Below are positions 15,907 through 43,945 of a DNA stretch of 64,000 nucleotides, piece after piece. The DNA lies in contig CM119372.1 of assembly GCA_051294905.1 (NCBI GenBank), positions 21,144,001 to 21,208,000 of the forward strand, read 5' to 3'. The translations under genes were made by a program, and so were the position numbers. The notes beneath the pieces were generated by a model. It made no database searches. It had not been told where the DNA came from and saw nothing but the letters and a program-made list of their open reading frames with translations. The stretch is from Botryllus schlosseri (lineage: Eukaryota). The first letter of the stretch is position 1. Each line of letters begins with the position of its first letter.

Positions 15907-16414
15907 GAAATTAGGTCATTCATTCCTGTGCGCGTGGCAATCGTCGATAGCCTGATTTGTCGCGTCTCGATCAGACCTGGTTCCGTTGGCTTGTACAATT
16001 GCACAATCGCATCTGCATTGGCGGCTTCGGCCTGGTGTGCACGATATCATCGTTGGCCTTCACAATAGCATCTGCAATAGACTTGTTGCGAAAGATATCA
16101 TTGCTGTTCTAACTATCGCGTCTCGGGCCTAGCATGCTTTGCCTAGGGTTGCCATACGTCCGGAATTTCACTGTTCAAACTTGCGTCCGGGAGGAAATTC
16201 TAAAATGTGCCTAAATGTCCGGAATTTTGAAGGCTTGAAGTTACATCGGTTATACCCTATGGTGCGGCCAAGATCAGTGCTTTTCTGGGCGGAAGGGGGC
16301 TGAAGAACTGTTGTTTCGGACCTGATTAAAACACACAGCCAGATAGCCGCACCGATTTAACAGTATATAGCAGGCCTGTCAAATACAATCCAGACACGGC
16401 CCGCCAGTCGATTT

Positions 16415-18790: not shown

Positions 18791-18832
18791 CAGGGATATC
18801 TAGAAACTTCTAGAAAGTTCTAGATATCCCTG
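18791..18832. mobile_element. 42-bp hairpin mini-insertion with 8-bp TSD
   Basis: CAGGGATATCTAGAA...TTCTAGATATCCCTG flanked by ATGAAAAC on both sides. Confidence 0.8.
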
Positions 18833-19211
18833 ATGAAAACGATCGTAATTCGTTCGCAGGGATTGTCAAAAGGTGCAAATTGAGCTATGCGAAAGGTGCC
18901 GAGCTTGATTCATATTGATGCATACCAGGAGGTATTCAATTTTCGACAGCATAAGCATTCGTCCGCATCATGGGATGAAAATGCGACACTAATCCTCTGT
19001 TTAATCGAACAGTACGTTTGAGAAAATATCGTGGTATGGCACACTCCCCCATATTACAGGGCCCGTAGTTTAGTCGAAGGGCAATACAGAGAAGTTGTAA
19101 AAAAGGATACTGTGTGAACACTTTGCGCGATTAGCAAACGTGAATAAAAAATATGGTGGTTCGTAAAAATGCCATATTGTGAGTAGTTATATAGATCGGT
19201 CGCGATTCGTA

Positions 19212-19445
19212 ATGGGCGCTTATGGGCGCGGTCGCATGCGGCTGGAAAACCGGGGGTGGCATGCGGCTCTTATTTCTTATGGGCGCGGTGGCATGCGGCT
19301 ATTGCGTCTTATGGGTGCGGTGGCAAGCGGCTCTTATGTCTTATGGCGGCGGTCGCAAGCGGCTGGGAAACCCGGGGTGGCAAGCGGCTCTTTTGTCTTA
19401 TGGCGGCGGTGGCATGCGGCTATTGTGTCTTGTGGTCGCACGGTA
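19212..19445. repeat. GC-rich ~31-bp subterminal tandem repeats of element A (mirror at ~42402-42635)
   Basis: Unit approximately TCTTATGGGCGCGGTGGCATGCGGCT(ATTGCG). Confidence 0.85.
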
Positions 19446-20122
19446 ACCCTTGTCAGCATAGGGATAGCTCGCACGCGGCTTCGTTGTTGGCATGTCGTAC
19501 TTCGTGTTGAATATGTATCAAGTAAATAGTCATGTGATTGGTCCTTAGGTAATGTGTATATTCCAAATTACGGCGAGTACGACAATGATATATCGTTATT
19601 CTTATGGACGCGGCGATGATTCGTACTTTCGAGTATCTCTCGCGCGGTGTTGAATATGTACGAGTCACCAACAATAACCGCGCGGACGGAAACGTGGTTT
19701 GTTGTGAGGATTAAGCAGTGCGTGCGACCTATATTTCGAATGACCTGTGCGCTGAATTATTTCTCGTCCAGCCGCTACTATCGATTATTACACTATTTCA
19801 TTCAGTGCGAAATAGTTTGCTAAATCTAGGAATCACTTCCAAGGTAATATTTTGGTAATTAGTTTACCGCAGAGCCAGCGTAGACGGCGATTCGAATATC
19901 AACAATAACCGCGTTCACAAACTAACACTTCAAAAATGTGTGAAATAGTTTGCAAAACCCCGCAATCGCTGACAAGATAACACATCAGGCATAGCCATCT
20001 CTCGTGGTGTGGATTTACAGAGGTAGGAATCACGCACAAGTAATAGTTTGTCACGGAGCCGGCGTAGACGGCGATTCGGTTACCAACAATCAGTAAGTCG
20101 CGAGTAGTGTAGTCGATCGCTC

Positions 20123-20360
20123 TGGGGGTGGCAGGGGCTCTTATGGGCGGGGTGGTGAGCGGCTGGAAAACCGGGGGTGGTGAGCGGCTCTTATTTCTTA
20201 TGGCGGGGGTGGTGAGCGGCTATTGCGTCTTATGGCGGGGGTGGTGAGCGGCTCTTATTTCTTATGGCGGGGGTCGTGAGCGGCTAGAAAACCGGGGGTG
20301 GTGAGCGGCTTTTATGTCTTATGGCGGGGGTCGTGAGCGGCTATTGTGTCTTGTGGTCGA
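20123..20360. repeat. GC-rich ~31-bp subterminal tandem repeats of element B (mirror at ~32841-33078)
   Basis: Unit approximately TCTTATGGCGGGGGTGGTGAGCGGCT(CTTATT). Confidence 0.85.
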
Positions 20361-21727
20361 ACGGTAACCCTTTTCAGTATAGGGATAGCTCGCACGCGGC
20401 TTCGTTGTTAGCATGTCGTACTTCGTGTTGAATATGTATCAAGTAAATAGTCATGTGATTGGTCCTTAGGTAACGTGTATATTCCAAATTACGGCGAGTA
20501 CGACATTGATATATCGTTATTCTTATGGATGCGGCGATGATTCGTACTTTCAGGCATCTCGCGACCGGTAACCCTTTTCGGTATATGAATCGCTCAACCG
20601 GTGCTAGTATAGCCATCTCTCGACCGGTAACCCTTTTCGGTATATGAATCGCTCAACCGGTGTCGCGGTGGTAATTCATACTTTCGGGTATATGCATCTC
20701 TCGACCGGTGTTGAATATGTATCAAGTAAATAGTCACGTGAATGAATCTTTGTTAATGTGTATATCGGGAAAACTCGCGGTCGTGACTCGCCTTTTTTGC
20801 TATAGGTGATCGCCGTTGTTTCTTATGGGTGCGCTCGCATGTCGCACTTTCAGGTATAGGCATCTCTCGCACATCGCAGACTCGCCATGTGTTCTTATGG
20901 GTGCCGCCGTGAATCGCCCTTTCGGTATAGACATCTCTCGCACGTCGTACTTTCGGGTATAGGCATCACTAAACAGGAAATTCACTAATCCGCAGCGCAT
21001 TGTGCGATTTTGAAAACCAGACGTTGGCGGTTGTATTTTGGACCTGTGTGACCCACTAAATACGTCCGTTTTGGAAATTCGGAGCGCGCACTATCGTATC
21101 GATTATTCCACTAATCCAGTCGGTGCTATTACGTTCGGCAGTATTCAGTATTCAGCAGCGTCACGAAAAGCGAGCAACAAATAACCGCGCTCGTAAATTG
21201 ACACTTCAAAAAGTGTAAAATAGATTGCAAATCCCGCGATCACTAACAAGATAATGTCTCGAACATAACCATTTTTAGTGACTTGGTGTTAAAGACATAC
21301 CGATCGCTCACAAGGTAATATTTCCGCAATAAGTTTGTCACAGAGCCGGCGCAGACGGTGATTCATAAACCAACAATTTGACACTTTCTGGTGGTCGCTA
21401 TATGTTTTGACACTTCGAACAGTGGCTGACTTTAGTTGCGCGATAAGAATTATGAGAATATTCAATCAATGTATCAATTTGCCAACTCGAAATGAAACTT
21501 ACTACACAGCTCAAGTTGATTCGTATCTGAATGTGTTAATTCGGTACAATTCTAATTATTTCGAGAAATCTTTTCGTGATCTTTTGATTCGACCGTAACT
21601 CGAATATTACTGACACCGACTTTCAGCCACATTGAATTATTCGCACACCAGCGCCGCTGTTTTCACAACTATAACTCTACAAGAATCAAGAATCACAAGT
21701 ATGTGCATTATACAGTTATTGTCTTTA

Positions 21728-22003
21728 TCAACACGAAATCAAACTCTTAACAAAAACACGCATCTTATCACTCGTCAACTCTATCATGAAAATCCTCGAG
21801 TCCTTATCATCAAAAATGTTATAGCGCGGCGTCGGAATCCATTCGTGGGATGTACTAAAGGTAAATCCAAATAATCCAGAATGAAATATTTGGACTTTGA
21901 CATTGTGTGAATTGAAATATGTTTGACAAACATGACTACCAACTTTCACCCAGTCACATTTCGAGATTATACGCACATTGATTTGAAACAAGTAATGAAA
22001 CAT
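21728..22003 (-). CDS. Hypothetical 91-aa element-encoded protein (identical mirror copy at 31198-31473 +)
   Basis: Element A carries a frameshifted homolog (~41060-41310 +) that keeps KCDWIKVGSHVC and SRIFMIELTSDKM. Confidence 0.35.
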   Translation of the reverse strand: MFHYLFQINVRIISKCDWVKVGSHVCQTYFNSHNVKVQIFHSGLFGFTFSTSHEWIPTPRYNIFDDKDSRIFMIELTSDKMRVFVKSLISC

Positions 22004-24699
22004 TACAACTCTATTCGCGACCTGTCTTTACGTTTGTCAAAGAGAGTTTCAGAAATATTATCACTATGACATCTCAACATTTTAACATCTCGCCATGCAC
22101 AAACGAGTAAAATACAAAAACCTTGGTAAGTCAATCCGTTTGTAACTCACCAAACCAAAACAAAAAGTGTCCGTATGAAAAGTAGACAAGACTACGCGAG
22201 TAATCACTACAACCCACAAACATACCAACTCAGTTGTATCCATATCCCATATTTTTTATTCAACTGCAAGATGAAGTAATTACTACTTGGCGCGCGGTTT
22301 GAGATTAACACATTACATTTGAGTATACGAGATTTGAATGTCTGACCAACGTAGTTGAGAATTCTTACAATCGAACGCAGGTGTTATATTGAAAATTTTC
22401 ACGAATTGACACATTGATTTTGACATATGAGATTTTGTAATAGTCGATCATGACTTGATTATTAAATTATGACAATATTAGACCAGGTTTGTGTTGAAGG
22501 TTATTACGATACCAACAAACTTTTCAGAAACATTGTTATTGACATATCGATTTGTAAAACTAGATTAACATATCTGAAATGTTTTGATTGGGAAGATTAA
22601 GCCGTGTTCGTAAAAACCACGCAGCGTATTGTGGAAATCAGGAAATAATTTACAAATGTAATTGTCTCCAGTAACCAAGACTAAAGATGAAACAACAATT
22701 TTCTTTGTTGAACAATAACCGGTACAATACTTTATCATCGTAATCAGCAGTGAGAAATGAAACACTTTCGCACATTATCCTGTGTCAAGATATCACACTA
22801 GGTGAATTGACATATCGCCGCTTGATTAATGCTTAATCCGTTCGCACCATTTCACATACTTTGATCATTACAAAAGTAAATTGGAATATGTTTGCTAGAT
22901 GCATTCAATTCAGTTAGAAATGTCTGGTGCACAACAATCGCAATATCAAAAAAGTACTTGCTACACTGTTATTTGCTAAACGTGTTTTGCATTGTTGTTC
23001 ATTTGTAGTATTGATTGTTCTTGAACCCTCAAATAATAATTCCCGACATGAAACCAAGCCACTGAAAGTCGTTACCATCACGAAGAAACAATGTGTACGA
23101 TGTTTGTCAAATGTATCCTACCTGGCCACCAGAAAACAATTTTCACTCAGTCGAAATGAAACCAATGTGACGGTCTCCATTCGATATTTTGTTTGTGTCA
23201 AATACTTAACAATGATCACATTTGAGTGGTTGAGCTTTACATCATCAAGCTGTTATTTGTAAATCAAGATTTCGGTAAACTTGTAAATGTATCGTTTAAC
23301 TAACCAACATTTAGTGATTGTTGAACATACGACTTCGAAATACTGCGTTGATCGTAATTTCCATCATCGTGATAATCGAAGTACATTTCTTTCGAATTCG
23401 TAACAACCGGCGTTTCTACGACATGATAAATTTTTGACAAGTTATGCTTAGAAGATTGGTTGCATATCGCGAAAAATAATATACCACTCATATTGATACT
23501 GTTACTCCATTGATCGATATTTTCAAACGAGTAAAATTTATTACTTGAGTTTCTCCGCTTAATGTAAATGCAAACTCAGCCGTCTTTTAACATCACAAAG
23601 GCATTGATAAAAAGTAAGCAATCAAACACAGCACTTTGTACGACGCTAATTATTGTTCCACACATCTCATTTCATACTAAGTGTATACGAAAGATATTCA
23701 TGTTACAGGAAAATATTCGCTCATGCTACAAACCTGTACGATGATTGGCGGTGTAAGTCCAGCACAATTGTGGTATCCATACGAGTTTAGTTAACACAAT
23801 TTACGACACCGAGGTCGCCTCATCTTTCGTAAGACAACAAACCAAGGCTTCAGGATATGTCCATGTCATAACAATAAATCAGCTACTCCAACAACAGAGT
23901 ACATATGTTTTCTAGCACGGTGCTTACATCTTACACACAAATCGACCTACTTTGCTAACGAAAAGTGCTGAGTCATCACATGGTTGTCATCACAACAATA
24001 ACAACTAAAACATACTATCATACAAAATGGCCGTTATAGTTTGCACACCAACGATACATCGTACAAGTAGCAAGTCTCGAGAATCCAGTTATTCAAAAAA
24101 CGTGAAAGTGTTTCTACGCCAAGTCGGTATGTTGACGAAAGCGTATATTGTAATATCATGATCGATTTACATTCGTTGGTCACAAAATGTCACTACTCTA
24201 AATAATTATTTTTCACTCAAAGCCTACTTGTCACCATTCGTTTCATCAAGCACGAGTTCAAGAAACCTGCTACGACATGAATTGTTATTTTTATGTTGTG
24301 TAAATAGGTAATAATTAATTTTAGTAACACTATATCAACATCATCGAGTTGCGCGAATAGATTTACATGTGGTCTTGTGGTTTTAATCGAAGTATACAGC
24401 ACGGTCTAATGTAGAGTCATCTCTATTGTACAGCAACTCGGAAATCGAAATGCATGCATTAACATTTAAACAGCGATCGCGTTTCGTGACGCGAAAAATA
24501 TGTTCACCACCGCGATACTCTGCACTGGGCGTGCAAATCCTTTTCACACTCGTAATAGTATACCAACGACTACCGGCGACAACGTTTAACAATACCAACG
24601 ACACTAAACATACGATACCTACCCAAGTAAAATTTCCATTTTCACCTGGAGGTCAGCCGTTACCTGACTAAAAATACCATTGTCCTTTGGAGATTTATC

Positions 24700-25370
24700 G
24701 TTTACCCAGTGTAACAATCCCCTTTTCACTTGGAAATCTATTTTTGCCCTGGATAACAAACCCCTTTTCACTTGGAAATCTATTTTTGCCCTGGATAACA
24801 AACCTTTTTCACTTGGAAATATATTTTTTCTCTTGGTAACAAACCTTTTTCACTTGGAAATATATTTTTTCTCTGGTTAACAAACCTTTTTCACTTGGAA
24901 ATATATTTTTTCTCTGGTTAACAAACCTTTTTCACTTGGAAATATATTTTTTCTCTGGTTAACAAACCTTTTTCACTTGGAAATATATTTTTTCTCTGGT
25001 TAACAAACCTTTTTTCACTTGGAAATATATTTTTTCTCTGGTTAACAAACCTTTTTCACTTGGAAATATATTTTTTCTCTGGGCAACAAACCTTTTTCCC
25101 CGAGTAACAAACCTTTTTCCCTGAGCAACAAGCCATTTTCACTTGGTGGGTCGTCGTTTACCTGAGTAAAAATATCATTTTCCTTTGGAGATCTGGCGTT
25201 TACCCAGTGTAACAATACATTTTCTCTTGGTCATCTAGCTTTTCCTAGAGTAACTAATCATTTCTCCTGGGTAACAAACCCTTTTCGTCTGGAAAACTAT
25301 CATTTACCCGAGTACCAATACCGTTTTCACTTGGAAATCTATCTTTTCCCTGGGTAACAATATCATTTTC
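24700..25370. repeat. 41-bp minisatellite in element B arm (mirror at ~27830-28500)
   Basis: Unit AACAAACCTTTTTCACTTGGAAATATATTTTTTCTCTGGTT at 41-bp period; the array degenerates at its edges. Confidence 0.9.
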
Positions 25371-26163
25371 GTTTTGAAAACTGACAACCACACCGGACAA
25401 TTTGATATTTTTGTATATTGTTACAACGGGTAGTGACAAAATATACACCAACAACGACTCCGATACATTTGTCTAATCAAATATTCACTTGCTCTGATGC
25501 ATCCCATCAAAATCATTGGTTACTCACATACAATAACAATGTGCTGTTGTACATCGACATGTATGTTTTCGGAATTGGCGAATAAAGGGGTTTCCGATAT
25601 GTCTGTGATGTCCGGGTTCGTGCTTTGGATTTTCCAGAGTCAAAATGTCTGAATAAAACACCTCCTTGACTTTGGTAACTGGTTGATACACGGATAATGG
25701 TGTTCGGAAAACGGATGAATTTATGTTTCCCATCGCGCTAATAACTCTGGGTTACTTGTGAGTTTCCTCAGGTCTGTTTACTATATTGTGTCTTTACTGG
25801 TCAATACATGTCGCTCCAGTCAGCTGCAACCGGATCACTAATATGAGAAAGTGTGTGGGCCTGATCCGGATATTCACTCATGAACCAACGACCAATATTC
25901 AAGTAAACATGTTACAGACCGTGTTTTGTCTCCATGAAAAATACCAATGCATACACCATCACATACAAGTAACGTCACGATTGTTCACAAGTATTCGCGT
26001 AAACGAGGTGTACATACAATGTGTCGGTGTACAAACATCATGGAAAACAAATTCATGTTCTCAAGTATCATCATGCGACGACTCTGTACATTCAATGTGG
26101 GCATAGAGGACTTGGAGACATGATACAATGGACAGTGCATTATGCATACCGATATATTCTCAG

Positions 26164-26439
26164 TCAAATATGCGAACCATACACAACCATATACCCTGAT
26201 TTTCGCTGAATATCCACAACACCAACAAATCTGTACATTTCTTTTCCCTTGACCTCGACGATAGAGTTGTCATCCCAATGTACCAATCGAGTGTATGGTT
26301 CATCAGGTGTAAAATCCAAATCAAATGTCACCAAGGTATCGTTTTTCATTTTCAATATTTCCACCGCTGCATCTTGTCTGTGTCGTAAAACCACGGTGTG
26401 GGGCCAGAGGAATCTATGGACAGTTACGCGTAGTCCCAT
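26164..26439 (-). CDS. Hypothetical 91-aa protein in the spacer of element B
   Basis: ATG-to-stop ORF; 44 of 69 residues identical, without gaps, to 39335-39550 (-) in element A, with many synonymous changes. Confidence 0.65.
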   Translation of the reverse strand: MGLRVTVHRFLWPHTVVLRHRQDAAVEILKMKNDTLVTFDLDFTPDEPYTRLVHWDDNSIVEVKGKEMYRFVGVVDIQRKSGYMVVYGSHI

Positions 26440-29400
26440 ATTTACTCGTGGATATGGTCAGGTAACGACAACGTTTTCTCAATGGGCTGTGTGGGTACAA
26501 CGTTTCAATACGTAGCTGGATCAACTAGACCAAAAGTTTCCAACCGCGATTTATGTTGACCTGTCGAGTTACGAGATAGCACCCTCTTGCGGTGTGATTA
26601 ACACGAAATCCACCTTCAGCTCGCAGAGACACACCCTGGATTACATTATCTAATCGTAATCGAACTCGAGATTCACACACACACACACAGAGTCCCTGTT
26701 TACGATTTCAATCCGGAGTCACTGCTCACGATGTTTAGCTGGAGTCGTTATGTGGGAGTAGCGACATCCGACATATTCATCGCGTGAAAGATTGATAACG
26801 GTGGTAATCACCAAATACATAAAACCAGGTGAAACACTGCGGTCTCAGCGAAAAAGTTAGCAGGTTATGACCAACGATACGCAGGGGTTGAGCGAGTTAC
26901 GCAACCCGATTAAGTCGAGGTCTGGATCACGATGCAAGTCTACATGAGAATCCGAAAAATCTTGCAAAATCAAGGTGTGAACCCGTGAAAGGGTTGTACT
27001 CGTGTGAGATTCATTTTTCACAAGTTGGGTTGAGGCGGCTCATACTAAGATCGTGTTACGTCCAAATATGGCTGCTTGTCTGTCCCCAAGTCATCTATGC
27101 CCACATTGAATGTACAGAGTCGTCGCATGATGATACTTGAGAACATGAATTTGTTTTCCATGATGTTTGTACACCGACATATTGTATGTACACCTCGTTT
27201 ACGCGAATACTTGTGAACAATCGTGACGTTACTTGTATGTGATGGTGTATGCATTGGTATTTTTCATGGAGACAAAACACGGTCTGTAACATGTTTACTT
27301 GAATATTGGTCGTTGGTTCATGAGTGAATATCCGGATCAGGCCCACACACTTTCTCATATTAGTGATCCGGTTGCAGCTGACTGGAGCGACATGTATTGA
27401 CCAGTAAAGACACAATATAGTAAACAGACCTGAGGAAACTCACAAGTAACCCAGAGTTATTAGCGCGATGGGAAACATAAATTCATCCGTTTTCCGAACA
27501 CCATTATCCGTGTATCAACCAGTTACCAAAGTCAAGGAGGTGTTTTATTCAGACATTTTGACTCTGGAAAATCCAAAGCACGAACCCGGACATCACAGAC
27601 ATATCGGAAACCCCTTTATTCGCCAATTCCGAAAACATACATGTCGATGTACAACAGCACATTGTTATTGTATGTGAGTAACCAATGATTTTGATGGGAT
27701 GCATCAGAGCAAGTGAATATTTGATTAGACAAATGTATCGGAGTCGTTGTTGGTGTATATTTTGTCACTACCCGTTGTAACAATATACAAAAATATCAAA
27801 TTGTCCGGTGTGGTTGTCAGTTTTCAAAACGAAAATGATATTGTTACCCAGGGAAAAGATAGATTTCCAAGTGAAAACGGTATTGGTACTCGGGTAAATG
27901 ATAGTTTTCCAGACGAAAAGGGTTTGTTACCCAGGAGAAATGATTAGTTACTCTAGGAAAAGCTAGATGACCAAGAGAAAATGTATTGTTACACTGGGTA
28001 AACGCCAGATCTCCAAAGGAAAATGATATTTTTACTCAGGTAAACGACGACCCACCAAGTGAAAATGGCTTGTTGCTCAGGGAAAAAGGTTTGTTACTCG
28101 GGGAAAAAGGTTTGTTGCCCAGAGAAAAAATATATTTCCAAGTGAAAAAGGTTTGTTAACCAGAGAAAAAATATATTTCCAAGTGAAAAAAGGTTTGTTA
28201 ACCAGAGAAAAAATATATTTCCAAGTGAAAAAGGTTTGTTAACCAGAGAAAAAATATATTTCCAAGTGAAAAAGGTTTGTTAACCAGAGAAAAAATATAT
28301 TTCCAAGTGAAAAAGGTTTGTTAACCAGAGAAAAAATATATTTCCAAGTGAAAAAGGTTTGTTACCAAGAGAAAAAATATATTTCCAAGTGAAAAAGGTT
28401 TGTTATCCAGGGCAAAAATAGATTTCCAAGTGAAAAGGGGTTTGTTATCCAGGGCAAAAATAGATTTCCAAGTGAAAAGGGGATTGTTACACTGGGTAAA
28501 CGATAAATCTCCAAAGGACAATGGTATTTTTAGTCAGGTAACGGCTGACCTCCAGGTGAAAATGGAAATTTTACTTGGGTAGGTATCGTATGTTTAGTGT
28601 CGTTGGTATTGTTAAACGTTGTCGCCGGTAGTCGTTGGTATACTATTACGAGTGTGAAAAGGATTTGCACGCCCAGTGCAGAGTATCGCGGTGGTGAACA
28701 TATTTTTCGCGTCACGAAACGCGATCGCTGTTTAAATGTTAATGCATGCATTTCGATTTCCGAGTTGCTGTACAATAGAGATGACTCTACATTAGACCGT
28801 GCTGTATACTTCGATTAAAACCACAAGACCACATGTAAATCTATTCGCGCAACTCGATGATGTTGATATAGTGTTACTAAAATTAATTATTACCTATTTA
28901 CACAACATAAAAATAACAATTCATGTCGTAGCAGGTTTCTTGAACTCGTGCTTGATGAAACGAATGGTGACAAGTAGGCTTTGAGTGAAAAATAATTATT
29001 TAGAGTAGTGACATTTTGTGACCAACGAATGTAAATCGATCATGATATTACAATATACGCTTTCGTCAACATACCGACTTGGCGTAGAAACACTTTCACG
29101 TTTTTTGAATAACTGGATTCTCGAGACTTGCTACTTGTACGATGTATCGTTGGTGTGCAAACTATAACGGCCATTTTGTATGATAGTATGTTTTAGTTGT
29201 TATTGTTGTGATGACAACCATGTGATGACTCAGCACTTTTCGTTAGCAAAGTAGGTCGATTTGTGTGTAAGATGTAAGCACCGTGCTAGAAAACATATGT
29301 ACTCTGTTGTTGGAGTAGCTGATTTATTGTTATGACATGGACATATCCTGAAGCCTTGGTTTGTTGTCTTACGAAAGATGAGGCGACCTCGGTGTCGTAA

Positions 29401-32400
29401 ATTGTGTTAACTAAACTCGTATGGATACCACAATTGTGCTGGACTTACACCGCCAATCATCGTACAGGTTTGTAGCATGAGCGAATATTTTCCTGTAACA
29501 TGAATATCTTTCGTATACACTTAGTATGAAATGAGATGTGTGGAACAATAATTAGCGTCGTACAAAGTGCTGTGTTTGATTGCTTACTTTTTATCAATGC
29601 CTTTGTGATGTTAAAAGACGGCTGAGTTTGCATTTACATTAAGCGGAGAAACTCAAGTAATAAATTTTACTCGTTTGAAAATATCGATCAATGGAGTAAC
29701 AGTATCAATATGAGTGGTATATTATTTTTCGCGATATGCAACCAATCTTCTAAGCATAACTTGTCAAAAATTTATCATGTCGTAGAAACGCCGGTTGTTA
29801 CGAATTCGAAAGAAATGTACTTCGATTATCACGATGATGGAAATTACGATCAACGCAGTATTTCGAAGTCGTATGTTCAACAATCACTAAATGTTGGTTA
29901 GTTAAACGATACATTTACAAGTTTACCGAAATCTTGATTTACAAATAACAGCTTGATGATGTAAAGCTCAACCACTCAAATGTGATCATTGTTAAGTATT
30001 TGACACAAACAAAATATCGAATGGAGACCGTCACATTGGTTTCATTTCGACTGAGTGAAAATTGTTTTCTGGTGGCCAGGTAGGATACATTTGACAAACA
30101 TCGTACACATTGTTTCTTCGTGATGGTAACGACTTTCAGTGGCTTGGTTTCATGTCGGGAATTATTATTTGAGGGTTCAAGAACAATCAATACTACAAAT
30201 GAACAACAATGCAAAACACGTTTAGCAAATAACAGTGTAGCAAGTACTTTTTTGATATTGCGATTGTTGTGCACCAGACATTTCTAACTGAATTGAATGC
30301 ATCTAGCAAACATATTCCAATTTACTTTTGTAATGATCAAAGTATGTGAAATGGTGCGAACGGATTAAGCATTAATCAAGCGGCGATATGTCAATTCACC
30401 TAGTGTGATATCTTGACACAGGATAATGTGCGAAAGTGTTTCATTTCTCACTGCTGATTACGATGATAAAGTATTGTACCGGTTATTGTTCAACAAAGAA
30501 AATTGTTGTTTCATCTTTAGTCTTGGTTACTGGAGACAATTACATTTGTAAATTATTTCCTGATTTCCACAATACGCTGCGTGGTTTTTACGAACACGGC
30601 TTAATCTTCCCAATCAAAACATTTCAGATATGTTAATCTAGTTTTACAAATCGATATGTCAATAACAATGTTTCTGAAAAGTTTGTTGGTATCGTAATAA
30701 CCTTCAACACAAACCTGGTCTAATATTGTCATAATTTAATAATCAAGTCATGATCGACTATTACAAAATCTCATATGTCAAAATCAATGTGTCAATTCGT
30801 GAAAATTTTCAATATAACACCTGCGTTCGATTGTAAGAATTCTCAACTACGTTGGTCAGACATTCAAATCTCGTATACTCAAATGTAATGTGTTAATCTC
30901 AAACCGCGCGCCAAGTAGTAATTACTTCATCTTGCAGTTGAATAAAAAATATGGGATATGGATACAACTGAGTTGGTATGTTTGTGGGTTGTAGTGATTA
31001 CTCGCGTAGTCTTGTCTACTTTTCATACGGACACTTTTTGTTTTGGTTTGGTGAGTTACAAACGGATTGACTTACCAAGGTTTTTGTATTTTACTCGTTT
31101 GTGCATGGCGAGATGTTAAAATGTTGAGATGTCATAGTGATAATATTTCTGAAACTCTCTTTGACAAACGTAAAGACAGGTCGCGAATAGAGTTGTAATG
31201 TTTCATTACTTGTTTCAAATCAATGTGCGTATAATCTCGAAATGTGACTGGGTGAAAGTTGGTAGTCATGTTTGTCAAACATATTTCAATTCACACAATG
31301 TCAAAGTCCAAATATTTCATTCTGGATTATTTGGATTTACCTTTAGTACATCCCACGAATGGATTCCGACGCCGCGCTATAACATTTTTGATGATAAGGA
31401 CTCGAGGATTTTCATGATAGAGTTGACGAGTGATAAGATGCGTGTTTTTGTTAAGAGTTTGATTTCGTGTTGATAAAGACAATAACTGTATAATGCACAT
31501 ACTTGTGATTCTTGATTCTTGTAGAGTTATAGTTGTGAAAACAGCGGCGCTGGTGTGCGAATAATTCAATGTGGCTGAAAGTCGGTGTCAGTAATATTCG
31601 AGTTACGGTCGAATCAAAAGATCACGAAAAGATTTCTCGAAATAATTAGAATTGTACCGAATTAACACATTCAGATACGAATCAACTTGAGCTGTGTAGT
31701 AAGTTTCATTTCGAGTTGGCAAATTGATACATTGATTGAATATTCTCATAATTCTTATCGCGCAACTAAAGTCAGCCACTGTTCGAAGTGTCAAAACATA
31801 TAGCGACCACCAGAAAGTGTCAAATTGTTGGTTTATGAATCACCGTCTGCGCCGGCTCTGTGACAAACTTATTGCGGAAATATTACCTTGTGAGCGATCG
31901 GTATGTCTTTAACACCAAGTCACTAAAAATGGTTATGTTCGAGACATTATCTTGTTAGTGATCGCGGGATTTGCAATCTATTTTACACTTTTTGAAGTGT
32001 CAATTTACGAGCGCGGTTATTTGTTGCTCGCTTTTCGTGACGCTGCTGAATACTGAATACTGCCGAACGTAATAGCACCGACTGGATTAGTGGAATAATC
32101 GATACGATAGTGCGCGCTCCGAATTTCCAAAACGGACGTATTTAGTGGGTCACACAGGTCCAAAATACAACCGCCAACGTCTGGTTTTCAAAATCGCACA
32201 ATGCGCTGCGGATTAGTGAATTTCCTGTTTAGTGATGCCTATACCCGAAAGTACGACGTGCGAGAGATGTCTATACCGAAAGGGCGATTCACGGCGGCAC
32301 CCATAAGAACACATGGCGAGTCTGCGATGTGCGAGAGATGCCTATACCTGAAAGTGCGACATGCGAGCGCACCCATAAGAAACAACGGCGATCACCTATA

Positions 32401-35400
32401 GCAAAAAAGGCGAGTCACGACCGCGAGTTTTCCCGATATACACATTAACAAAGATTCATTCACGTGACTATTTACTTGATACATATTCAACACCGGTCGA
32501 GAGATGCATATACCCGAAAGTATGAATTACCACCGCGACACCGGTTGAGCGATTCATATACCGAAAAGGGTTACCGGTCGAGAGATGGCTATACTAGCAC
32601 CGGTTGAGCGATTCATATACCGAAAAGGGTTACCGGTCGCGAGATGCCTGAAAGTACGAATCATCGCCGCATCCATAAGAATAACGATATATCAATGTCG
32701 TACTCGCCGTAATTTGGAATATACACGTTACCTAAGGACCAATCACATGACTATTTACTTGATACATATTCAACACGAAGTACGACATGCTAACAACGAA
32801 GCCGCGTGCGAGCTATCCCTATACTGAAAAGGGTTACCGTTCGACCACAAGACACAATAGCCGCTCACGACCCCCGCCATAAGACATAAAAGCCGCTCAC
32901 CACCCCCGGTTTTCTAGCCGCTCACGACCCCCGCCATAAGAAATAAGAGCCGCTCACCACCCCCGCCATAAGACGCAATAGCCGCTCACCACCCCCGCCA
33001 TAAGAAATAAGAGCCGCTCACCACCCCCGGTTTTCCAGCCGCTCACCACCCCGCCCATAAGAGCCCCTGCCACCCCCAGAGCGATCGACTACACTACTGT
33101 CGCGAAACTGGATTTCACTGGTAAGATTTAATAAGTAACGAATAACAGAGCCATCGCAGACGGTGATTCGAAAACCAACAATTTGACACTTTCTGGTGGT
33201 CGCTATATGCTTTGACACTTCGGAACGTGGTTGACTTTAGTTGTATGATAAGAATATACAAGTAATGTGTCAATTTGTCAACTTGAAATGAAACTTACTA
33301 CACAAACCGAGTTGATTCGTATTTGAATGTGTTAATTCGGTACAATTCTAATTATTTTGAGAAATCTTTTTAACGTGATCTTGTGAATCGTACGTAACCT
33401 GAATATTACCGACACCGACTTTCAGCCGCATCGAATTATTCACACATTCCACGCCGCTGTTTCACACCTATAGAATCAATGCCAACTAGTTGTATGAAAA
33501 TCAAGAATCACAAGTATGCACATATAATAATTGTATTCATTATTGAGAAATCAAACCCTTAACAAAAACTCACATCTTATCACTTGTCAACTCTATCATG
33601 AAAATCCTCGAACCCGTATTATTAAGAATGTTATAAAACGGCGTCAGAAATCCACTCGCGAGATGTACTAAAGGTAAATCCAGATAATCCTAAATGAAAT
33701 ATTTGGACCTTGACAAACATGACTACCAACTTTGATCCAGTCACATTTCAAGATCATACTTTGAAACAATCCTTGAAACTTACAACTCTATTCACGACTT
33801 AGTTTTCCGTTTATCAAATAGAGTTTCAGCAAATACTATCGCGATATTTTAATGTGTTACTACACACAATAGAATCAATCAATGAAATAGCACCTGTTGT
33901 AAATATTTTTAACTTGACAACCACTTGTGCATACCGCGATCGACTTGTGACGCGATGAGTTAAATCGTAAATCGGAATATTTCAATCTATTTGTCGAAAC
34001 CTTGAACAAACTATCAGGTTATTTTTTTTTTTGTTGTAATCGAGTGAACGGAAATAGTATTACGTCTCAACATTTTAACATCTTCCCATACACAAAAGAG
34101 TAAAATACAAAAAAAGCCCTGTCAAGTCAATCCGTTTGTAACTTACCCAACCAAAGCAAAAAGTATCCTTATGAAAAGTAGACAAGACTACGCGAGTAAT
34201 CACCACAATCCAAAATCCATAGCAAGTTCGGTTGTAGTCATATACCACCAAATCGTCTTTTTATTTGTTCAACTGTAAAAGTCGTTACTATTCTGTAAGA
34301 TAAAGTAATTACTACTCGGTATATTTTATAAACCAAAGTAAATACTACTCGGTGTGTGGTTTGAGATTAACATATTACATTTGAGTATACCCGATTTGAA
34401 TGTCTGACCAACGTAGTTGAGAATTCATTTCTTACAATCAAACGCCGGTGTTACATTGAAAGGTATCATACTGTAAACATAAGGATTGACACATTGATTA
34501 TTAAATTATTCACGATAATTAGACCCGGTGTTGTGGTAAAGGTTATTAGAAAATATCACTTTTAGCATCGAGTACCAGTCGAAGTGGGTGAACAATACTT
34601 AATCCTTTCAGTGACTCGCTGTTGTACGTGCTAAATGTAAAACATTACGAGGTTAAACTCTAAGACTTTGATCAGCACAAGAGCAATTTGGACTATATTT
34701 TCTGGCTACAACCTATTCTATTAGACAAAACTCGAAGCATTAATAAAATCGAAATATGTGCTACACTGAAATCTACAAAATGTGTTCGTATTGTTACTAG
34801 TAGTGATCATGCATTATCATTTGAATCTTCTAAAGTAATTGTAATGATAAAACCAAACTACTCAAAGTCATTACCAACACAAAAAACGATTTCTATGATA
34901 TTCATCAAACGCATCATACCTCAGTATGCAGAAATTATTTGTAGAGTGCATACCAACAAAGAAATCAGGAACACAACCAACACCGAAAATGATAAATGCG
35001 TTTCGTGCTACTATTGATACAAGTTCATTTCTATCAGGTGAAATAAACGCCATCACAAAACTCGGAGCATGCAAAGGTCTTGATTGATATGAATTTCGAT
35101 TTGTGTCTTATGATACCAGCAAGCATTTTAGAAATATTATGATTCGTTAAACCAAAGTCGTATGTCCGATTATTAATTGATTGGAAACTTGATCACGTAC
35201 CTCGATCATTACAGAAGATTATAACACCATTGTCCGACAATCTTTTACAAAAGGATCGAAACCTAGTAACCCAAAGTCGTTGCCGTCGCATAAACAATTT
35301 GTACGACGTTTGATAAATGTACCCTATACTTTGGTGTACTAGAAATATTTGTAAAACACACTCTGGTAAAGAAATCGAAAAGATATCCTACACCTAAATC

Positions 35401-36728
35401 TGATAAAACCATTTTGCACTTTTTGGACGTCAGTAGTATCCATTTGAATTTTTCCATTTCCTCTCGTCAAAGTAGATGTAATCATAGTCGCTAAAGAACT
35501 TACTTGGATGTGTTTGAATTCTAGACATAGTTATGATTTACTCGACGCAAGACCCAAGAACAACCGTAGTTTACAACCGTGCACACATATCCAAAATATC
35601 GCACACTCCGCTATTCCTAAAGTACAAACACCCGATACAAAATATTACTTGTTGTGTTGTTGCGGCATCATCTTCACAATATCACCATTTTGTTTGTGTC
35701 AATTAGTTACTTTGTATGTTTCCCCACAACTCTTACAAATGTACGAAGGATATTAACATCACACTAAGTAATTAACTTTACTCGATATTCTCGCATTACG
35801 AAACTAAAGAATGATTGGTTAGACTCTACAAACTGTTTCGATATCACAAGACCTTTATTGTCTGAATGGGTGTTCATGTATCTTAATAATCAAATAGTTC
35901 AACACAGAACTAGTACTAACAGAAACATCAGAGTTGTTTACACAAAAGTTTGTATATGTGCACAGTATGCGAATACCATGTGTAAGTCCAGCACAATTGC
36001 GGTATCCATCCGAGTTTAGTTAACACAAATTTATTACAACGGAGTCACGTAAACTTTCGCGAAAGAAAAGCATACTCACTCCTAGAGGGTTATGTCAATG
36101 CCATAGCAGTTCCCCAACAACAAAGTACATATGTTTTCTAGTCACGGTCCTTACATCTTTCACATAGATCAATCTACTTTGCTAACGAAAAGTGCTGAGT
36201 CATCACATGATCGCTCTCACAACAAAACAGCTAGTAGATATTATCATTCAAAATATTCCTAACCCTTTACACACCAGTAACAAATCATACAACGAATATG
36301 TTTTGTGGGTCGAATTGTTGTTCAGTGTCAAGTCTACCTGTTGAAACGTACATTAAAACAACACAATCACAATCAAATTAAAACCACGAATCTATTTTCA
36401 TTTCCTCGCAAACTGTCACATACAGAAAAATAAATTTAAGTTCCCAAAACATACTTGTAACCAATCGCTTTCATTAAACACACAACACTATAATAGTATT
36501 TACTTTCTACAACATAGACATTCCGGTGTAGTCAAGAAATATTTTTAATAATCAAAATCATCGACTTCTGTTTACGGTGTTAGTGTGTGCATGTCATATA
36601 TGTGGGCCCGTATTAAAATGGACACGACACGACTGACTGTAAGGAGATAGAAGTCTATCGCATAAATTTACATGTGGTCTTCGCTACGGTTTCAAAAAAC
36701 GAATCATCTATTTTGCATTGATCTAGAC

Positions 36729-37749
36729 CAGGGGTGGGCAAACTTTTGAGCTCGCGGGCCGCATTCAACATCTGAATCCATTCGCGGGCCGCACTATATA
36801 AAATTGGGATTATAAACCAAAATGCAATATTGGTATTGGTGTTGGTATGTCACAACTATAGAGATGAAAGTCGGTTGTCCCGATTCTTAGAACAGGATTT
36901 AAATTTAAATCTGTTAGCAGCGATCTGTTCATAGATTTACTAATTCCACTTTTGATTCGGTTCCAGGACACACAATGCTGACAGCATCATACCCATGGTA
37001 GATTCAAACACGCTTCTACTGTTTGCAGATAAAATATAACTACCCCAATTCTACGCATAGAACGAATCCATAAGCACATCACTAAAATAGTTAAAACTGG
37101 AGAGACGAATCTGAAATCACACTCGTGATCAGAATTATGTCAATCTCGTTTAGGATTTCTGTTATTTTTAGCAGTTAAAACCTTTCAAACTCTGCGGGCC
37201 TTGAGACGGTCGCGCCAGAAATTAAACATAAAACTAATATAGGAAATAGATACCTTAGAACAGTGGATCTCAAACTTTTTAAGACACGCTCTCTTGTGAT
37301 GGTGAACGATTTCACGCCACTTATCGTCATATCGCAAAACGCAACCAGGATGCTATAGAAACCGTAACAGATAATTTGATGGCATTAAAGGGTATACGAC
37401 TGTGGATGAGAGATTTTTAGATACGAAATTCAGACTAAATACAAAGCTAAAATTAGGAATTAGGTGTGAATCGCGCGGAGCGCGAAATTTTTTTTCAGTT
37501 GAGCTGATCTTCGCCCCCCATTCAGATGCTTTCACGCCCTCAAGGGGGCACGCCCCCCAGTTTGAGAACCACTGCCTTAGAATTATGATGGTGAAATATA
37601 CCAAAAAGTTTAATTAGTCCCTGCATTAATTCGATATTTAGTACGCATTTCATCAATATTTTTAATAAGTTTATTTAGACTCTCGCGGGCCGCACAAAAC
37701 GGTGTTGCGGGCCGCATGCGGCCCGCGGGCCGTAGTTTGCCCACCCCTG
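36729..37749. mobile_element. hAT Charlie-like MITE in the spacer of element A
   Basis: TIRs CAGGGGTGGGCAAACT / AGTTTGCCCACCCCTG; TSD ATCTAGAC. Confidence 0.92.
37261..37574. mobile_element. 314-bp hAT MITE nested in the previous MITE
   Basis: TIRs CAGTGGATCTCAAACT / AGTTTGAGAACCACTG; TSD CCTTAGAA. Confidence 0.9.
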
Positions 37750-38069
37750 ATCTAGACCGAGCAAGTTAGTTAATGGCCATGATTGTGTTTGTCATATGCG
37801 AATGATAGGGTTACTGTCAAATCTACATACAACAATCTTCTGACGATCATAATAGCAATTTCATTTTCCACCCCTTCATAATTGTACAACTCGGTAACTA
37901 CGTTTAACAAGACCAATCACACTACCAGCGTTGAACACAAGATACCTACCCAAGTAAAAATATCATTCTAGTTTGGACAACTGACGTTTACCTGTGTAAA
38001 ATTAGCATTTTCACTTGGAGGTCCACTGTTACCTAACTAAAATACCATTGTCCTTTGGAGATTTATCGT

Positions 38070-38470
38070 TTACCCAGTGTAACAATCCCCTTTTCCTTTG
38101 GAAATCTATTTTTTCCCTGGGTAACAAACCTTTTTCACTTGCAAATATATTTTTTCTCTTGGTAACAAACCTTTTTCACTTGGAAATATATTTTTTCTCT
38201 GGGTAACAAACCTTTTTCTCTTGGAAATATATTTTTTCTCTGGGTAACAAACCTTTTTCACTTGGAAATATTTTTTTCCCTGAGCAACAAACCTTTTTCA
38301 CTTGGGAATATATTTTTTCCCTGAGCAACAAACCATTTTCACATGGTGGGTCGTCGTTATACTTAGTAAAAATATCATTTTCCTTTGGAGATCCGGCGTT
38401 TACCAGTGTAACAATACATTTTCTCTTGGTCATCTAGCTTTTCCTAGAGTAACAAAACCATTTTCATTTT
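38070..38470. repeat. Shorter copy of the 41-bp minisatellite in element A spacer
   Basis: Same unit and flanks as 24700-25370, with fewer units. Confidence 0.85.
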
Positions 38471-39334
38471 GAAATCTGACAAACACACCTGACAATTTGG
38501 TATTTGTTGTATTGACGATACTTTGAAATAGATTACAACGAACAGTGACGGAAATATACACGGACTACCGGTTTCAGAGTATACCCCCATCAGTCGTATC
38601 ACATCAATATCATCGGTTAACCACATACAATATGCTCTTGTCCACCGAAATGTATGTTTTGGAAAATTGGACAATATGCTTCGATAGTTCTGTGATGTCC
38701 GGGTTCGTGCTTTGGATTTTCCAGAGTCAAAATGTCTGAATAAAACACCTCCTCGACGATGGTTGGTATGTGGATAACGGGATTCAAAAAACGGTTGGAT
38801 TTATGTCACCCATCGCGATAACAATTCCAGGTCGAGTTTTCCCCCGCATGTTTACTATATTGTGTCTTTATTGGTCAATGTATGTCTCGACATTCAGTTT
38901 GAAATCGGAAACCCTGATAAAGTATGTAATCGGATCCGGATATCAACTCTGAATCGATAAACCAATGAACAATATTCAAAGTAAACATGTTACACCCCGT
39001 GTTTCCACGAAAAAATACCATCCAGGCATACGTCGCGCTTGTTTGCCCACAACAGTATACGCGTAAATGGAGGTGTGTAACATTGCATGCAATGTGTTGG
39101 TATACAAACATCGGGGAGTAAGCCTTCGATCGACAGACATTATCATAGCCGGAATTTTGATACAGATCGAATGTCATCAAGCACACCCGATAACAATGTC
39201 ATACCAATAAGCCACATTGCAATGACTCTGAGTCAATCTGAAGCATGACATACAGACGCACAAACATGGAACCGTAACATGGGTTATTCGCACGACGGCG
39301 AAAGTGAACTGTACAGCATATATCAATAGAGCGT

Positions 39335-39553
39335 TCACAGTCGAATATGCGAGCCATGCACAATCATATACCCAGATTTTCGTTGGATATGTACGAAACC
39401 AATAAATCGATACATTTCTGTTCCTTCTACGTCAATAATACAAGCGGCATTCCAATGCATCGCTCGAATGTAAGGTTCGTCTGGTGTAAAATCCATGTCA
39501 AATAACACCATAGTGTGCCTTCCGTGTTTTATTATTTCCACCGTCGCATCTCC
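39335..39553 (-). pseudogene. Homolog of ORF 26164-26439, 5'-truncated by the arm junction of element A
   Basis: DATVEIIK...FDMDFTPDEPY...EMYRFIGFVHIQRKSGYMIVHGSHI; homology stops at the arm boundary (39554). Confidence 0.65.
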
Positions 39554-42500
39554 ATCCTTTTGTAAAAGATTGTCGGACAATGGTGTTATAATCTTCTGTA
39601 ATGATCGAGGTACGTGATCAAGTTTCCAATCAATTAATAATTGGACATACGACTTTGGTTTAACGAATCATAATATTTCTAAAATGCTTGCTGGTATCAT
39701 AAGACACAAATCGAAATTCATATCAATCAAGACCTTTGCATGCTCCGAGTTTTGTGATGGCGTTTATTTCACCTGATAGAAATGAACTTGTATCAATAGT
39801 AGCACGAAACGCATTTATCATTTTCGGTGTTGGTTGTGTTCCTGATTTCTTTGTTGGTATGCACTCTACAAATAATTTCTGCATACTGAGGTATGATGCG
39901 TTTGATGAATATCATAGAAATCGTTTTTTGTGTTGGTAATGACTTTGAGTAGTTTGGTTTTATCATTACAATTACTTTAGAAGATTCAAATGATAATGCA
40001 TGATCACTACTAGTAACAATACGAACACATTTTGTAGATTTCAGTGTAGCACATATTTCGATTTTATTAATGCTTCGAGTTTTGTCTAATAGAATAGGTT
40101 GTAGCCAGAAAATATAGTCCAAATTGCTCTTGTGCTGATCAAAGTCTTAGAGTTTAACCTCGTAATGTTTTACATTTAGCACGTACAACAGCGAGTCACT
40201 GAAAGGATTAAGTATTGTTCACCCACTTCGACTGGTACTCGATGCTAAAAGTGATATTTTCTAATAACCTTTACCACAACACCGGGTCTAATTATCGTGA
40301 ATAATTTAATAATCAAGTCGTGGTCGAACATTACAAAATCTCATATATCAAATCAATGTGTCAATCCTTATGTTTACAGTATGATACCTTTCAATGTAAC
40401 ACCGGCGTTTGATTGTAAGAAATGAATTCTCAACTACGTTGGTCAGACATTCAAATCGGGTATACTCAAATGTAATATGTTAATCTCAAACCACACACCG
40501 AGTAGTATTTACTTTGGTTTATAAAATATACCGAGTAGTAATTACTTTATCTTACAGAATAGTAACGACTTTTACAGTTGAACAAATAAAAAGACGATTT
40601 GGTGGTATATGACTACAACCGAACTTGCTATGGATTTTGGATTGTGGTGATTACTCGCGTAGTCTTGTCTACTTTTCATAAGGATACTTTTTGCTTTGGT
40701 TGGGTAAGTTACAAACGGATTGACTTGACAGGGCTTTTTTTGTATTTTACTCTTTTGTGTATGGGAAGATGTTAAAATGTTGAGACGTAATACTATTTCC
40801 GTTCACTCGATTACAACAAAAAAAAAATAACCTGATAGTTTGTTCAAGGTTTCGACAAATAGATTGAAATATTCCGATTTACGATTTAACTCATCGCGTC
40901 ACAAGTCGATCGCGGTATGCACAAGTGGTTGTCAAGTTAGAAATATTTACAACAGGTGCTATTTCATTGATTGATTCTATTGTGTGTAGTAACACATTAA
41001 AATATCGCGATAGTATTTGCTGAAACTCTATTTGATAAACGGAAAACTAAGTCGTGAATAGAGTTGTAAGTTTCAAGGATTGTTTCAAAGTATGATCTTG
41101 AAATGTGACTGGATCAAAGTTGGTAGTCATGTTTGTCAAGGTCCAAATATTTCATTTAGGATTATCTAGATTTACCTTTAGTACATCTCGCGAGTGGATT
41201 TCTGACGCCGTTTTATAACATTCTTAATAATACGGGTTCGAGGATTTTCATGATAGAGTTGACAAGTGATAAGATGTGAGTTTTTGTTAAGGGTTTGATT
41301 TCTCAATAATGAATACAATTATTATATGTGCATACTTGTGATTCTTGATTTTCATACAACTAGTTGGCATTGATTCTATAGGTGTGAAACAGCGGCGTGG
41401 AATGTGTGAATAATTCGATGCGGCTGAAAGTCGGTGTCGGTAATATTCAGGTTACGTACGATTCACAAGATCACGTTAAAAAGATTTCTCAAAATAATTA
41501 GAATTGTACCGAATTAACACATTCAAATACGAATCAACTCGGTTTGTGTAGTAAGTTTCATTTCAAGTTGACAAATTGACACATTACTTGTATATTCTTA
41601 TCATACAACTAAAGTCAACCACGTTCCGAAGTGTCAAAGCATATAGCGACCACCAGAAAGTGTCAAATTGTTGGTTTTCGAATCACCGTCTGCGATGGCT
41701 CTGTTATTCGTTACTTATTAAATCTTACCAGTGAAATCCAGTTTCGCGACTTACTGATTGTTGGTAACCGAATCGCCGTCTACGCCGGCTCCGTGACAAA
41801 CTATTACTTGTGCGTGATTCCTACCTCTGTAAATCCACACCACGAGAGATGGCTATGCCTGATGTGTTATCTTGTCAGCGATTGCGGGGTTTTGCAAACT
41901 ATTTCACACATTTTTGAAGTGTTAGTTTGTGAACGCGGTTATTGTTGATATTCGAATCGCCGTCTACGCTGGCTCTGCGGTAAACTAATTACCAAAATAT
42001 TACCTTGGAAGTGATTCCTAGATTTAGCAAACTATTTCGCACTGAATGAAATAGTGTAATAATCGATAGTAGCGGCTGGACGAGAAATAATTCAGCGCAC
42101 AGGTCATTCGAAATATAGGTCGCACGCACTGCTTAATCCTCACAACAAACCACGTTTCCGTCCGCGCGGTTATTGTTGGTGACTCGTACATATTCAACAC
42201 CGCGCGAGAGATACTCGAAAGTACGAATCATCGCCGCGTCCATAAGAATAACGATATATCATTGTCGTACTCGCCGTAATTTGGAATATACACATTACCT
42301 AAGGACCAATCACATGACTATTTACTTGATACATATTCAACACGAAGTACGACATGCCAACAACGAAGCCGCGTGCGAGCTATCCCTATGCTGACAAGGG
42401 TTACCGTGCGACCACAAGACACAATAGCCGCATGCCACCGCCGCCATAAGACAAAAGAGCCGCTTGCCACCCCGGGTTTCCCAGCCGCTTGCGACCGCCG

Positions 42501-43514
42501 CCATAAGACATAAGAGCCGCTTGCCACCGCACCCATAAGACGCAATAGCCGCATGCCACCGCGCCCATAAGAAATAAGAGCCGCATGCCACCCCCGGTTT
42601 TCCAGCCGCATGCGACCGCGCCCATAAGCGCCCATTACGAATCGCGACCGATCTATATAACTACTATTGTGTAGCTTTATTTCCGGAAATTAAAGGCATT
42701 ACTACACTTGCTTTTATATTTCAACATGATGTATGTTATCCACACAAAAGAACTGATATCAAATAGAACTCAAAGTATATGATACTTGGAATAGAAAGTG
42801 AAATATATAAATACTACTTCTAAAAGCGGAAAATGTGTTTCATGTCTTTAGTCCAGAAAGTTTCAAAGGTGGTATGCTAAAACAGCTCTAAACCTAAAAA
42901 AAGTCAGAGTCCACTTTTCCAGATTAGGACTGCTAGATAACGATATGATAATTAAATGCTAGATTGCGAAACATCAGTCTCAAACATTATGATGAGCCAT
43001 ATATGCTGTGATGAAATATTTCATGGGCGACGGGCGACAATGCGGTGTGAACAAAACCACGTCAACCCGCTACCTAAACTATATTCACCGATACTTTCGT
43101 GAAATCATACTGGTTACTCCGTATCCACTGAGCGCGAAGCGCGACGAAAATTCCGGGCGTTATTGAACTTTTATGAATATTAAATGTTGATACTCCTTGA
43201 AAACAGCCCCGAAATTCCTCAGGCTATCTTCCTGATTGGAGGATCAAACTACTTCTTCTTGACAAACTGAAAATGGCGAAAAGTAAGTAAGTAGATCAAA
43301 TTTTTTTTTGTTTGTAATACTTTTTCGGCATGAATTTATGGAAATGAAAAATGCACTACGAATAAATATAATCGCGACTTCGGTCGCTACTTCTACAAAG
43401 TAGAAGTGGCGAAAACCGGATCTACTTGAGTAAGTACCCCAAGAGATGAAAACTACTTGAGTACTTCGAAAAAGTAGAAGTACTTCGTTACTGACCACCT
43501 CTCCATATGGCGCC

Positions 43515-43945
43515 TATCGACTATGATCATTTACAGTACACCATAGGCCAATTCTTTATATTTATTCCGTAGCTGCCAATTTGTAGCACGACCGACTTCT
43601 AGGCTTTCATGAGAGACCGCTCACGGGGTTGAGATGGCGAGGAGAAGCCAAGATAAACCCCAACACTTAGGTAAGAATTCTGGAGTCGACCTCGTTCACA
43701 CTCGAACCCGCAATCCCATGGGTGCAGACAAGGTGACCTTACCGTCGTATCCCATCTCCGTCGTCAAATCATCTCGATGGTGCAGGTGAAAGCGAATACC
43801 CCCTTCTCTCTCTTTTCATCGGGTATTTTGCTGCGCTTTTTGTCGCCGAAAGAACAGCGACACGGAGGAAGAGTAGCCCAGAATACCCTGGCCTCCATCG
43901 CGGAATAGAACCAAGGCAGGCGTTTATCGTCACCACTATGCAGTC
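43515..43945 (-). mobile_element. Two adjacent tRNA-derived SINE-like copies
   Basis: 43515-43765 matches 1715-1925 (inverted); 43790-43945 matches ~51155-51300 (inverted). Confidence 0.55.

Follow-up and report, generated by a model that had tools for sequence, protein, structure and literature searches.

The described elements closest to the locus reported here are the Mavericks, also called Polintons. Their commonest terminal motif in vertebrates is 5′-(AGT)2//(ACT)2-3′, accompanied by a 6-bp target-site duplication, and intact vertebrate copies measure 12.7–24.6 kb and carry inverted repeats of 46–1,447 bp (PMC8097293). That these elements replicate by way of a folded single strand has been a model, not an observation (PMC4046053), and non-autonomous copies are apparently absent in the anole (PMC3014272). 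Passages of PMC8502044 contain nothing on defective or palindromic forms. A literature search, with most subscription papers outside it, returned no description of palindromic Maverick derivatives with kilobase arms. Non-autonomous Polintons are reportedly listed by Kapitonov and Jurka (2006) and in Repbase. Here we describe two nested mirror-image elements, A and B, in a 64,000-nucleotide stretch of the Botryllus schlosseri genome (assembly GCA_051294905.1, contig CM119372.1, positions 21,144,001 to 21,208,000; hereafter the window, to which all positions refer). Element A is probably a non-autonomous, secondarily shortened member of an abundant family of giant, 13-kb palindromes with Maverick/Polinton-type ends, and a sister lineage of B.

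Element A resembles Mavericks in its (AGT)2//(ACT)2 ends, its 6-bp duplication and its terminal inverted repeats; unlike Mavericks, A and B have no detected core genes, and read depth suggests a copy number well above the reported median of eight (PMC8097293). Three further systems resemble it in part. Galileo, of the Drosophila P superfamily, shares with A the long, repetitive and variable inverted repeats, extended in non-autonomous copies and subject to one-sided shortening, and differs in its 7-bp duplication, its repeats of up to ~1.26 kb and its P-type transposase, against the 6-bp duplication, (AGT)2 ends and 3-kb arms of A (PMC3573991). The copy-back or snap-back defective genomes of RNA viruses likewise consist of an end and its inverted copy and depend on a helper; being RNA and unintegrated, they offer an analogy of shape only (PMC6140465). 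The phage phi29 is a protein-primed linear replicon that also gives rise to palindromes, but these by-products are short and not integrated, whereas here the palindromes reach 10–13 kb, lie within the chromosome, have diversified and, as a family, possess their own gene (PMC2175359).

Boundaries and ends of the two elements

Element A occupies 19182–42665, with AGTAGT...ACTACT ends and a copy of the duplication ATTGTG on either side (19176–19181 and 42666–42671), as seen in self-comparison and in the termini as read. A match of this length between the two 6-bp copies has a chance probability of ~3e-4. The site without the insertion is present in sequencing reads: 232 contigs of one DNA set, X1, connect the left flank of A straight to its right flank (loose end at 42665). 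A sequence-only reading had given the same termini, duplication and sizes (~10.5 kb, arms of 3,073 and 3,112 bp), and all of these agree with our coordinates.

The left arm (plus strand) is interrupted by B. Its outer piece, 19182–20102, begins with the (AGT)2 terminus and contains 32/57-bp subterminal repeats at 19255–19364; its inner piece is 33105–35256, giving 921 + 2,152 = 3,073 bp in all. The spacer (35257–39553, plus strand, 4,297 bp by coordinates) follows, and meets the right arm (39554–42665, minus strand, 3,112 bp, with the (ACT)2 terminus) at a junction at 39551–39554 that has no long microhomology. Without B the element is 10,482 bp long. The outer left arm is identical at 921/921 positions to the reverse complement of 41745–42665, and the inner 2,152 bp show 3 substitutions, a 1-nt indel and a 40-nt indel between the arms (a fourth mismatch in the arm listing, at 35257, falls beyond the arm end and is not counted). 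The 40 nt absent from the left arm at 34494, present in the right arm at 40317–40356, sit between short direct repeats; because B also has them, their loss from the left arm is the derived state. Self-comparison returned the long inverted pairs 19182–20103/42665–41744, 20103–26120/33098–27081 and 33099–35259/41750–39551. Element A is a real mirror-image mobile element.

Element B (20103–33098, 12,996 bp) lies within the left arm of A. It has AGTAGT...ACTACT ends of its own, two 6,018-bp arms (20103–26120 and 27081–33098) around a 960-bp loop, and the duplication GTCGCG at 20097–20102, the end of A's outer arm piece, and at 33099–33104. The same six bases occur once in the right arm of A (41745–41750), which represents the empty site, and B therefore inserted into the left arm of A. 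The B arms differ at 3 positions in 6,018 bp, and these few differences are in line with B being the younger element. Two of the three fall within 13 bp of the loop (26108–26116), as if equalisation halted before an old loop border.

The site in which A itself lies is a high-copy element of ~1.4 kb, presumably of the hAT type (18624–19181 plus 42666–43503; duplication 7/8 alike), whose end at 43502 appears with varied loose ends in 454 (X1) and 410 (X5) contigs. The order of nesting is the hAT-like host, then A, then B.

Both A and B carry the Maverick end motif, for which (AGT)2//(ACT)2 or (AG)3//(CT)3 was accepted, and both have a Maverick-type 6-bp duplication with an empty site (ATTGTG and GTCGCG). 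Their inverted repeats, at 3,073/3,112 bp and 6,018 bp, exceed the described Maverick range of 46–1,447 bp, and A at 10,482 bp falls below, B at 12,996 bp within, the size range of intact vertebrate copies (PMC8097293). No Maverick core gene (protein-primed polymerase B, integrase, ATPase, protease or capsid) was detected in either element, frameshift-aware profiles for heavily decayed or spliced remnants not having been run. Only two stop-to-stop frames of at least 120 amino acids overlap A or B, both in the repeat-rich termini; none of 26 selected shorter frames (from 75, plus one terminal frame) matched Pfam at its cut-off, and Rfam gave no match within 19000–43600. The family has nevertheless inserted repeatedly and independently without enzymes of its own, to judge from two insertions with different duplications and from the high depth in X1 and X5. 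On this evidence A is no autonomous Maverick and would work like a non-autonomous dependant of one.

Common plan of A and B and the small loop gene

When the left arm and loop of B (6,978 bases) are aligned to A, 4,010 bases match in the same order, at 64–86% identity in blocks longer than 120 bases. The sequence-only reading had called A collinear with B over several blocks and yet clearly diverged, and this holds: shared sequence reaches far past the ends. The terminal blocks, 20103–20569 in B and 19182–19648 in A, are 86% identical, and the two sequences part immediately after terminal base 6. Further inward, 21340–22506 matches 33145–34548 at 72–86%, 22858–23123 matches 34665–34921 at 64% and 23751–24093 matches 35980–36319 at 74%. 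Both elements contain a 41-bp minisatellite (A, 38079–38346, plus strand, 6.5 copies; B, 24723–25098, 9.1 copies per arm), and the innermost block pairs 26157–26374 with 39334–39551 at 74–75%.

For all six landmarks computed, the distance from the terminus is similar in B and in A once the hAT-like insert in the A spacer is removed: 1,238/962, 3,649/3,797, 4,609/4,868, 5,493/5,470, 6,065/6,132 and 6,272/6,339 bp. It follows that most of the A spacer corresponds to the inner half of a B arm and then to the start of the B loop. The left unit of A is built to the scale of a B arm plus loop, its copy of the loop gene ending 6,132 bp from the terminus against 6,065 bp in B.

Three smaller features were seen in the shared sequence. 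The 64% block overlaps frames of 114 and 117 amino acids (22918–23262 and 34664–35017) that have no Pfam match at cut-off, and is possibly a decayed gene. Two short blocks stand out at 96% identity, one of 47 bp that is non-coding (23751–23797 in B, 35980–36026 in A) and one of 76 bp (25595–25670 in B, 38682–38757 in A) within a region of ~70%; the latter block has no coding signal and is a candidate cis element. Outside the small gene, no clear coding signal was found in the remaining aligned A/B blocks.

The loop of B contains an intact gene of 91 codons on the minus strand (26164–26439). Element A retains only its 3′ 71 codons and stop (39335–39550, minus strand): the first ~22 codons are gone, with arm sequence in their place (39551–39554). 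The open reading frame that the sequence-only reading took to be conserved in both elements is homologous between them, as claimed, but in A its 5′ end has been lost. Over 69 shared codons the nonsynonymous (dN) and synonymous (dS) divergences are 0.24 and 0.72 (dN/dS ~0.33; Fisher p 0.001), mismatches fall 20/10/24 on the three codon positions, and the frame is the only one of six without a stop. In antisense frame +1 dN is also below dS, but that frame contains 2 stops. The substitution pattern indicates that the small gene is under purifying selection.

Public protein collections hold full-length relatives of 90–95 amino acids in 6 clusters at the 90% level, 50–99% identical to the B protein (150 candidates) and none with an informative name. 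The A remnant is identical at 63/71 positions (89%) to residues 23–93 of one of these proteins, the full-length P0012, and 64% identical to the B protein. Since this relative within the A lineage is whole, the A junction breaks a gene, and A is the derived state. The evidence points to a genuine small loop gene that an element can nonetheless dispense with in cis.

The B protein is predicted to be an all-beta fold of eight strands (predicted local distance difference test score, pLDDT, 69.8). Small heat-shock and CS domains rank first in three structure libraries, weakly in each (best Z 5.2, root-mean-square deviation 3.9, 61 aligned residues; Foldseek E 7e-3 in the PDB and 2.5e-2 among viral models, with none at E 0.001). 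As a lead only, the model suggests an HSP20/alpha-crystallin-like or CS-like beta-sandwich. By sequence the protein had no Pfam match at cut-off, a single PDB match at E 1.1 and, in PHROGs, a match to 1 of 9 members at E 0.076; the ESM Atlas held nothing usable for it, and scores for P0010 were all <0.8. None of 1,195 longer candidate proteins was related, and viral contigs gave none of 182 candidates and no exact DNA match. A search of representative proteins returned 3 matches, 2 of them WD40 repeat proteins, which were dropped as chance, as were 2 of 298 candidates in metagenome contigs, which were one locus seen twice that matched the window neither as DNA nor in translation. A single bulk RNA run was apparently unstranded, and ~6 in 100 of its reads were used; its depth was 0–6 over A and 42–58 at a neighbouring exon, too thin to judge expression of the small gene.

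Read depth, rare letters and surroundings

Positions 38480–46000 were compared at 90% likeness with three DNA contig sets (X1, X5 and X8) and with the RNA run. Summed depth over bins of A was 41,252–546,343 in X1 and 14,498–315,828 in X5, against 7–67 and 60–192 in the unique flank from 44002 on; such sums are not copy numbers, vary with the 90% cut-off and lose rare variants, and the letter differences considered are those of 40 of 353 rows. In X1 and X5 the summed depth of A exceeds that of the neighbouring single-copy exon by a factor of hundreds to thousands, which shows that the family is very abundant.

From bin 38982–39232 to the gene bin 39233–39483 depth falls 2.8-fold (X1), 2.3-fold (X5) and 2.4-fold (X8). 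A two- to threefold drop fits most relatives having the preceding stretch in both arms and the gene once, with divergence as an alternative cause. One X8 contig of 384 letters fits 39554–39831 and continues for 106 letters unlike A; judged by the orientation of other records, these would sit on the junction side, so that the common form would differ from the A junction.

Eight arm sites at which A departs from many or nearly all of the contigs were checked, and at 7/8 of them A has its own letter in both arms. At site 41213 the A letter is found in no more than 13 of 26,995 depth units in X1 and in none of 24,849 in X5. A rare lineage with equal arms points to copying from arm to arm shortly before or after insertion.

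Contigs of all three sets also join an arm form that lacks 382 bases of 39830–40213 (depth 46.6 in X1, 5,837.8 in X5 and 26.3 in X8), so further A-like sub-lineages exist. Sets X8, X9, X13 and X15, filed under four other organism labels, contain 0.35–0.38 of the sampled words; the unique flank has almost no depth in X8, so these matches may stem from trace host DNA or a related species.

The spacer of A itself contains a nested pair of non-coding inserts, overlooked in the sequence-only reading, which we likewise take to be hAT-like. The first, 36729–37749 (1,021 bp), has a 16/16 terminal inverted repeat and the 8-bp duplication ATCTAGAC; the second lies inside it at 37261–37574 (314 bp; 15/16 terminal inverted repeat; 8-bp duplication CCTTAGAA) and matches 16912–17181 of the window at 73%. 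Together they fill 1,029 bp, and without them A measures 9,453 bp.

The window as a whole is DNA of animal type with a G+C content of 41%. Frameshifted and decayed gag-pol frames at 2357–7837 lie between copies of a 154-bp direct repeat (2165–2317 and 8060–8213, 98% identical) that may be the long terminal repeats of an element we presume to be Gypsy-like. A 1-kb repeat forms an inverted pair (14941–15913 and 58108–59090, 84–92% identity). The single-copy control mentioned above is a BCCIP-family exon with a Pfam match on the minus strand at 44864–45301, expressed in X24. Pfam matches also mark fragments of a transposase whose N-terminal domain is of the RNase H type (53697–54077) and of a non-LTR retrotransposon-type endonuclease (62833–63438).

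Origin of the layout of element A

One-sided loss from a palindrome of the B type yields exactly the layout of A. In the reading that we favour, the protein-primed polymerase of a helper Maverick would copy the palindromes in trans and its integrase would insert them, as the ends and duplications suggest. A displaced single strand would fold into a long panhandle, and one arm would be rewritten from the other, so that the arms stay near-identical. The forerunner of A would have had arms of ~6 kb, a loop of ~1 kb and the whole small gene, and a single event would have removed the start of the gene, the remainder of the loop and ~3 kb of the inner right arm, by deletion at the unstable palindrome centre or by a template switch; the inner left arm would thereby have become the present spacer. 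Palindrome centres are subject to one-sided deletion. The text of PMC7999016 gave no support for this last point.

Several observations weigh against this account, in addition to the limits on summed depth given above. A second copy-back gives the same layout as a deletion, and the junction shows no microhomology that would tell the two apart. Neither a helper nor a long-armed copy of A's own lineage is seen in this 64-kb window, and 2,968 of the 6,978 bases of the B half have no match in A, ~700 of them beyond the A junction. Homology is poor near the border of arm and loop in B (26038–26157 against 39111–39334). The link of A to Mavericks is drawn from a 6-bp end motif and a 6-bp duplication. 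Five structural events against 3 arm substitutions fit poorly with a history in place if all of them followed insertion, and A may instead be a copy of a donor in which the hAT-like inserts were already present.

The account preferred in the sequence-only reading is that A founds or belongs to a mobile short-armed subfamily, produced when a longer linear parent underwent a separate copy-back, with arm length set by the point of template switching. Copy-back yields an identical layout, the ends and duplication of A are perfect, two hAT-like inserts beside only 3 arm substitutions fit inheritance from a donor copy, and arm bins specific to A (39735–40236) are multi-copy (14,498 and 28,845 in X5 against 60–190 in unique flank). 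In X5, however, depth at the gene (39519) is 72,189, ~9 times the 8,445 just inside the arm (39642), so that most A-like genes are not joined to the arm as they are in A, the gap in X1 being less than twofold; at several sites the letters of A occur rarely in X1 and not at all in X5; the left unit of A has the scale of a B arm plus loop; and the junction ruins a gene under purifying selection. We consider a subfamily of this kind unlikely. The same evidence divides the earlier argument that two fold-backs of different size point to a recurrent class and not to a single accident: A and B do belong to one family, through their shared blocks, the depth and the six protein clusters, but their arm sizes do not speak for recurrent fold-back formation, A being built to the scale of B and its junction cutting the gene.

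Still less probable is a reading of both elements as ordinary fold-back DNA transposons with an unrecognised cut-and-paste transposase, their repeats extended as in Galileo and their Maverick-like ends a coincidence. No Maverick gene was detected in either, and Galileo too has subterminal tandem repeats and variable repeat lengths, the longest in non-autonomous copies (PMC3573991); against this stand two independent insertions with (AGT)2 ends and 6-bp duplications in elements that diverge right after base 6, besides Galileo's 7-bp duplications and shorter repeats. We regard as very improbable a Maverick-ended family in which A would be an old and inactive insertion that did not arise by copying in the form it has now and whose arms were equalised by gene conversion within the chromosome, a view that overlaps the favoured one except in how the arms became equal. 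Human Y palindrome arms do convert (PMC7999016), A at 9,453 bp lies under the Maverick size range (PMC8097293), and it has gathered three insertions and what looks like a deletion; yet its duplication and both termini are perfect, the clearly young B has the same arm identity, and conversion left B, the 40-nt loss and 3 substitutions in A unremoved. Chimeric reads can produce long near-perfect inverted repeats, and no contig spans the compared stretch 38480–46000. The probability that fold-back long reads misled the assembly into this structure is nevertheless close to negligible, given duplications and empty sites for both elements and A arms that differ by B, the 40-nt indel and substitutions.

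The one-sided loss that we favour can be extended, tentatively and at a probability we hold to be low, to a long-lived satellite system riding on Mavericks: 13-kb palindromes in many diverged lineages, with a loop gene under purifying selection whose HSP20-like product might act as chaperone or modulator of a helper protein, and with A as a second-tier parasite that lost the gene and was copied again from a chromosomal copy with its hAT-like cargo. If so, integrated palindromes would re-enter protein-primed replication, and their arm length would be reset meanwhile.

Palindromic by-products of phi29 were reportedly described by Esteban et al. in 1997. What the present locus adds for the Maverick world is a set of gene-poor elements whose kilobase arms are identical down to rare letters, as the folded-strand model predicts, and which provide markers to test it. 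Surveys keyed on the integrase and polymerase genes (PMC8097293) would overlook such elements. The family is more striking than A, a single rearranged copy; what A contributes is a lineage that differs from B by 14–36% where the two align, a junction at which a change of arm length can be seen, and evidence for a real loop gene that is dispensable in cis. Element A speaks for an old and diversified family whose arm length can change, and not for a second origin.

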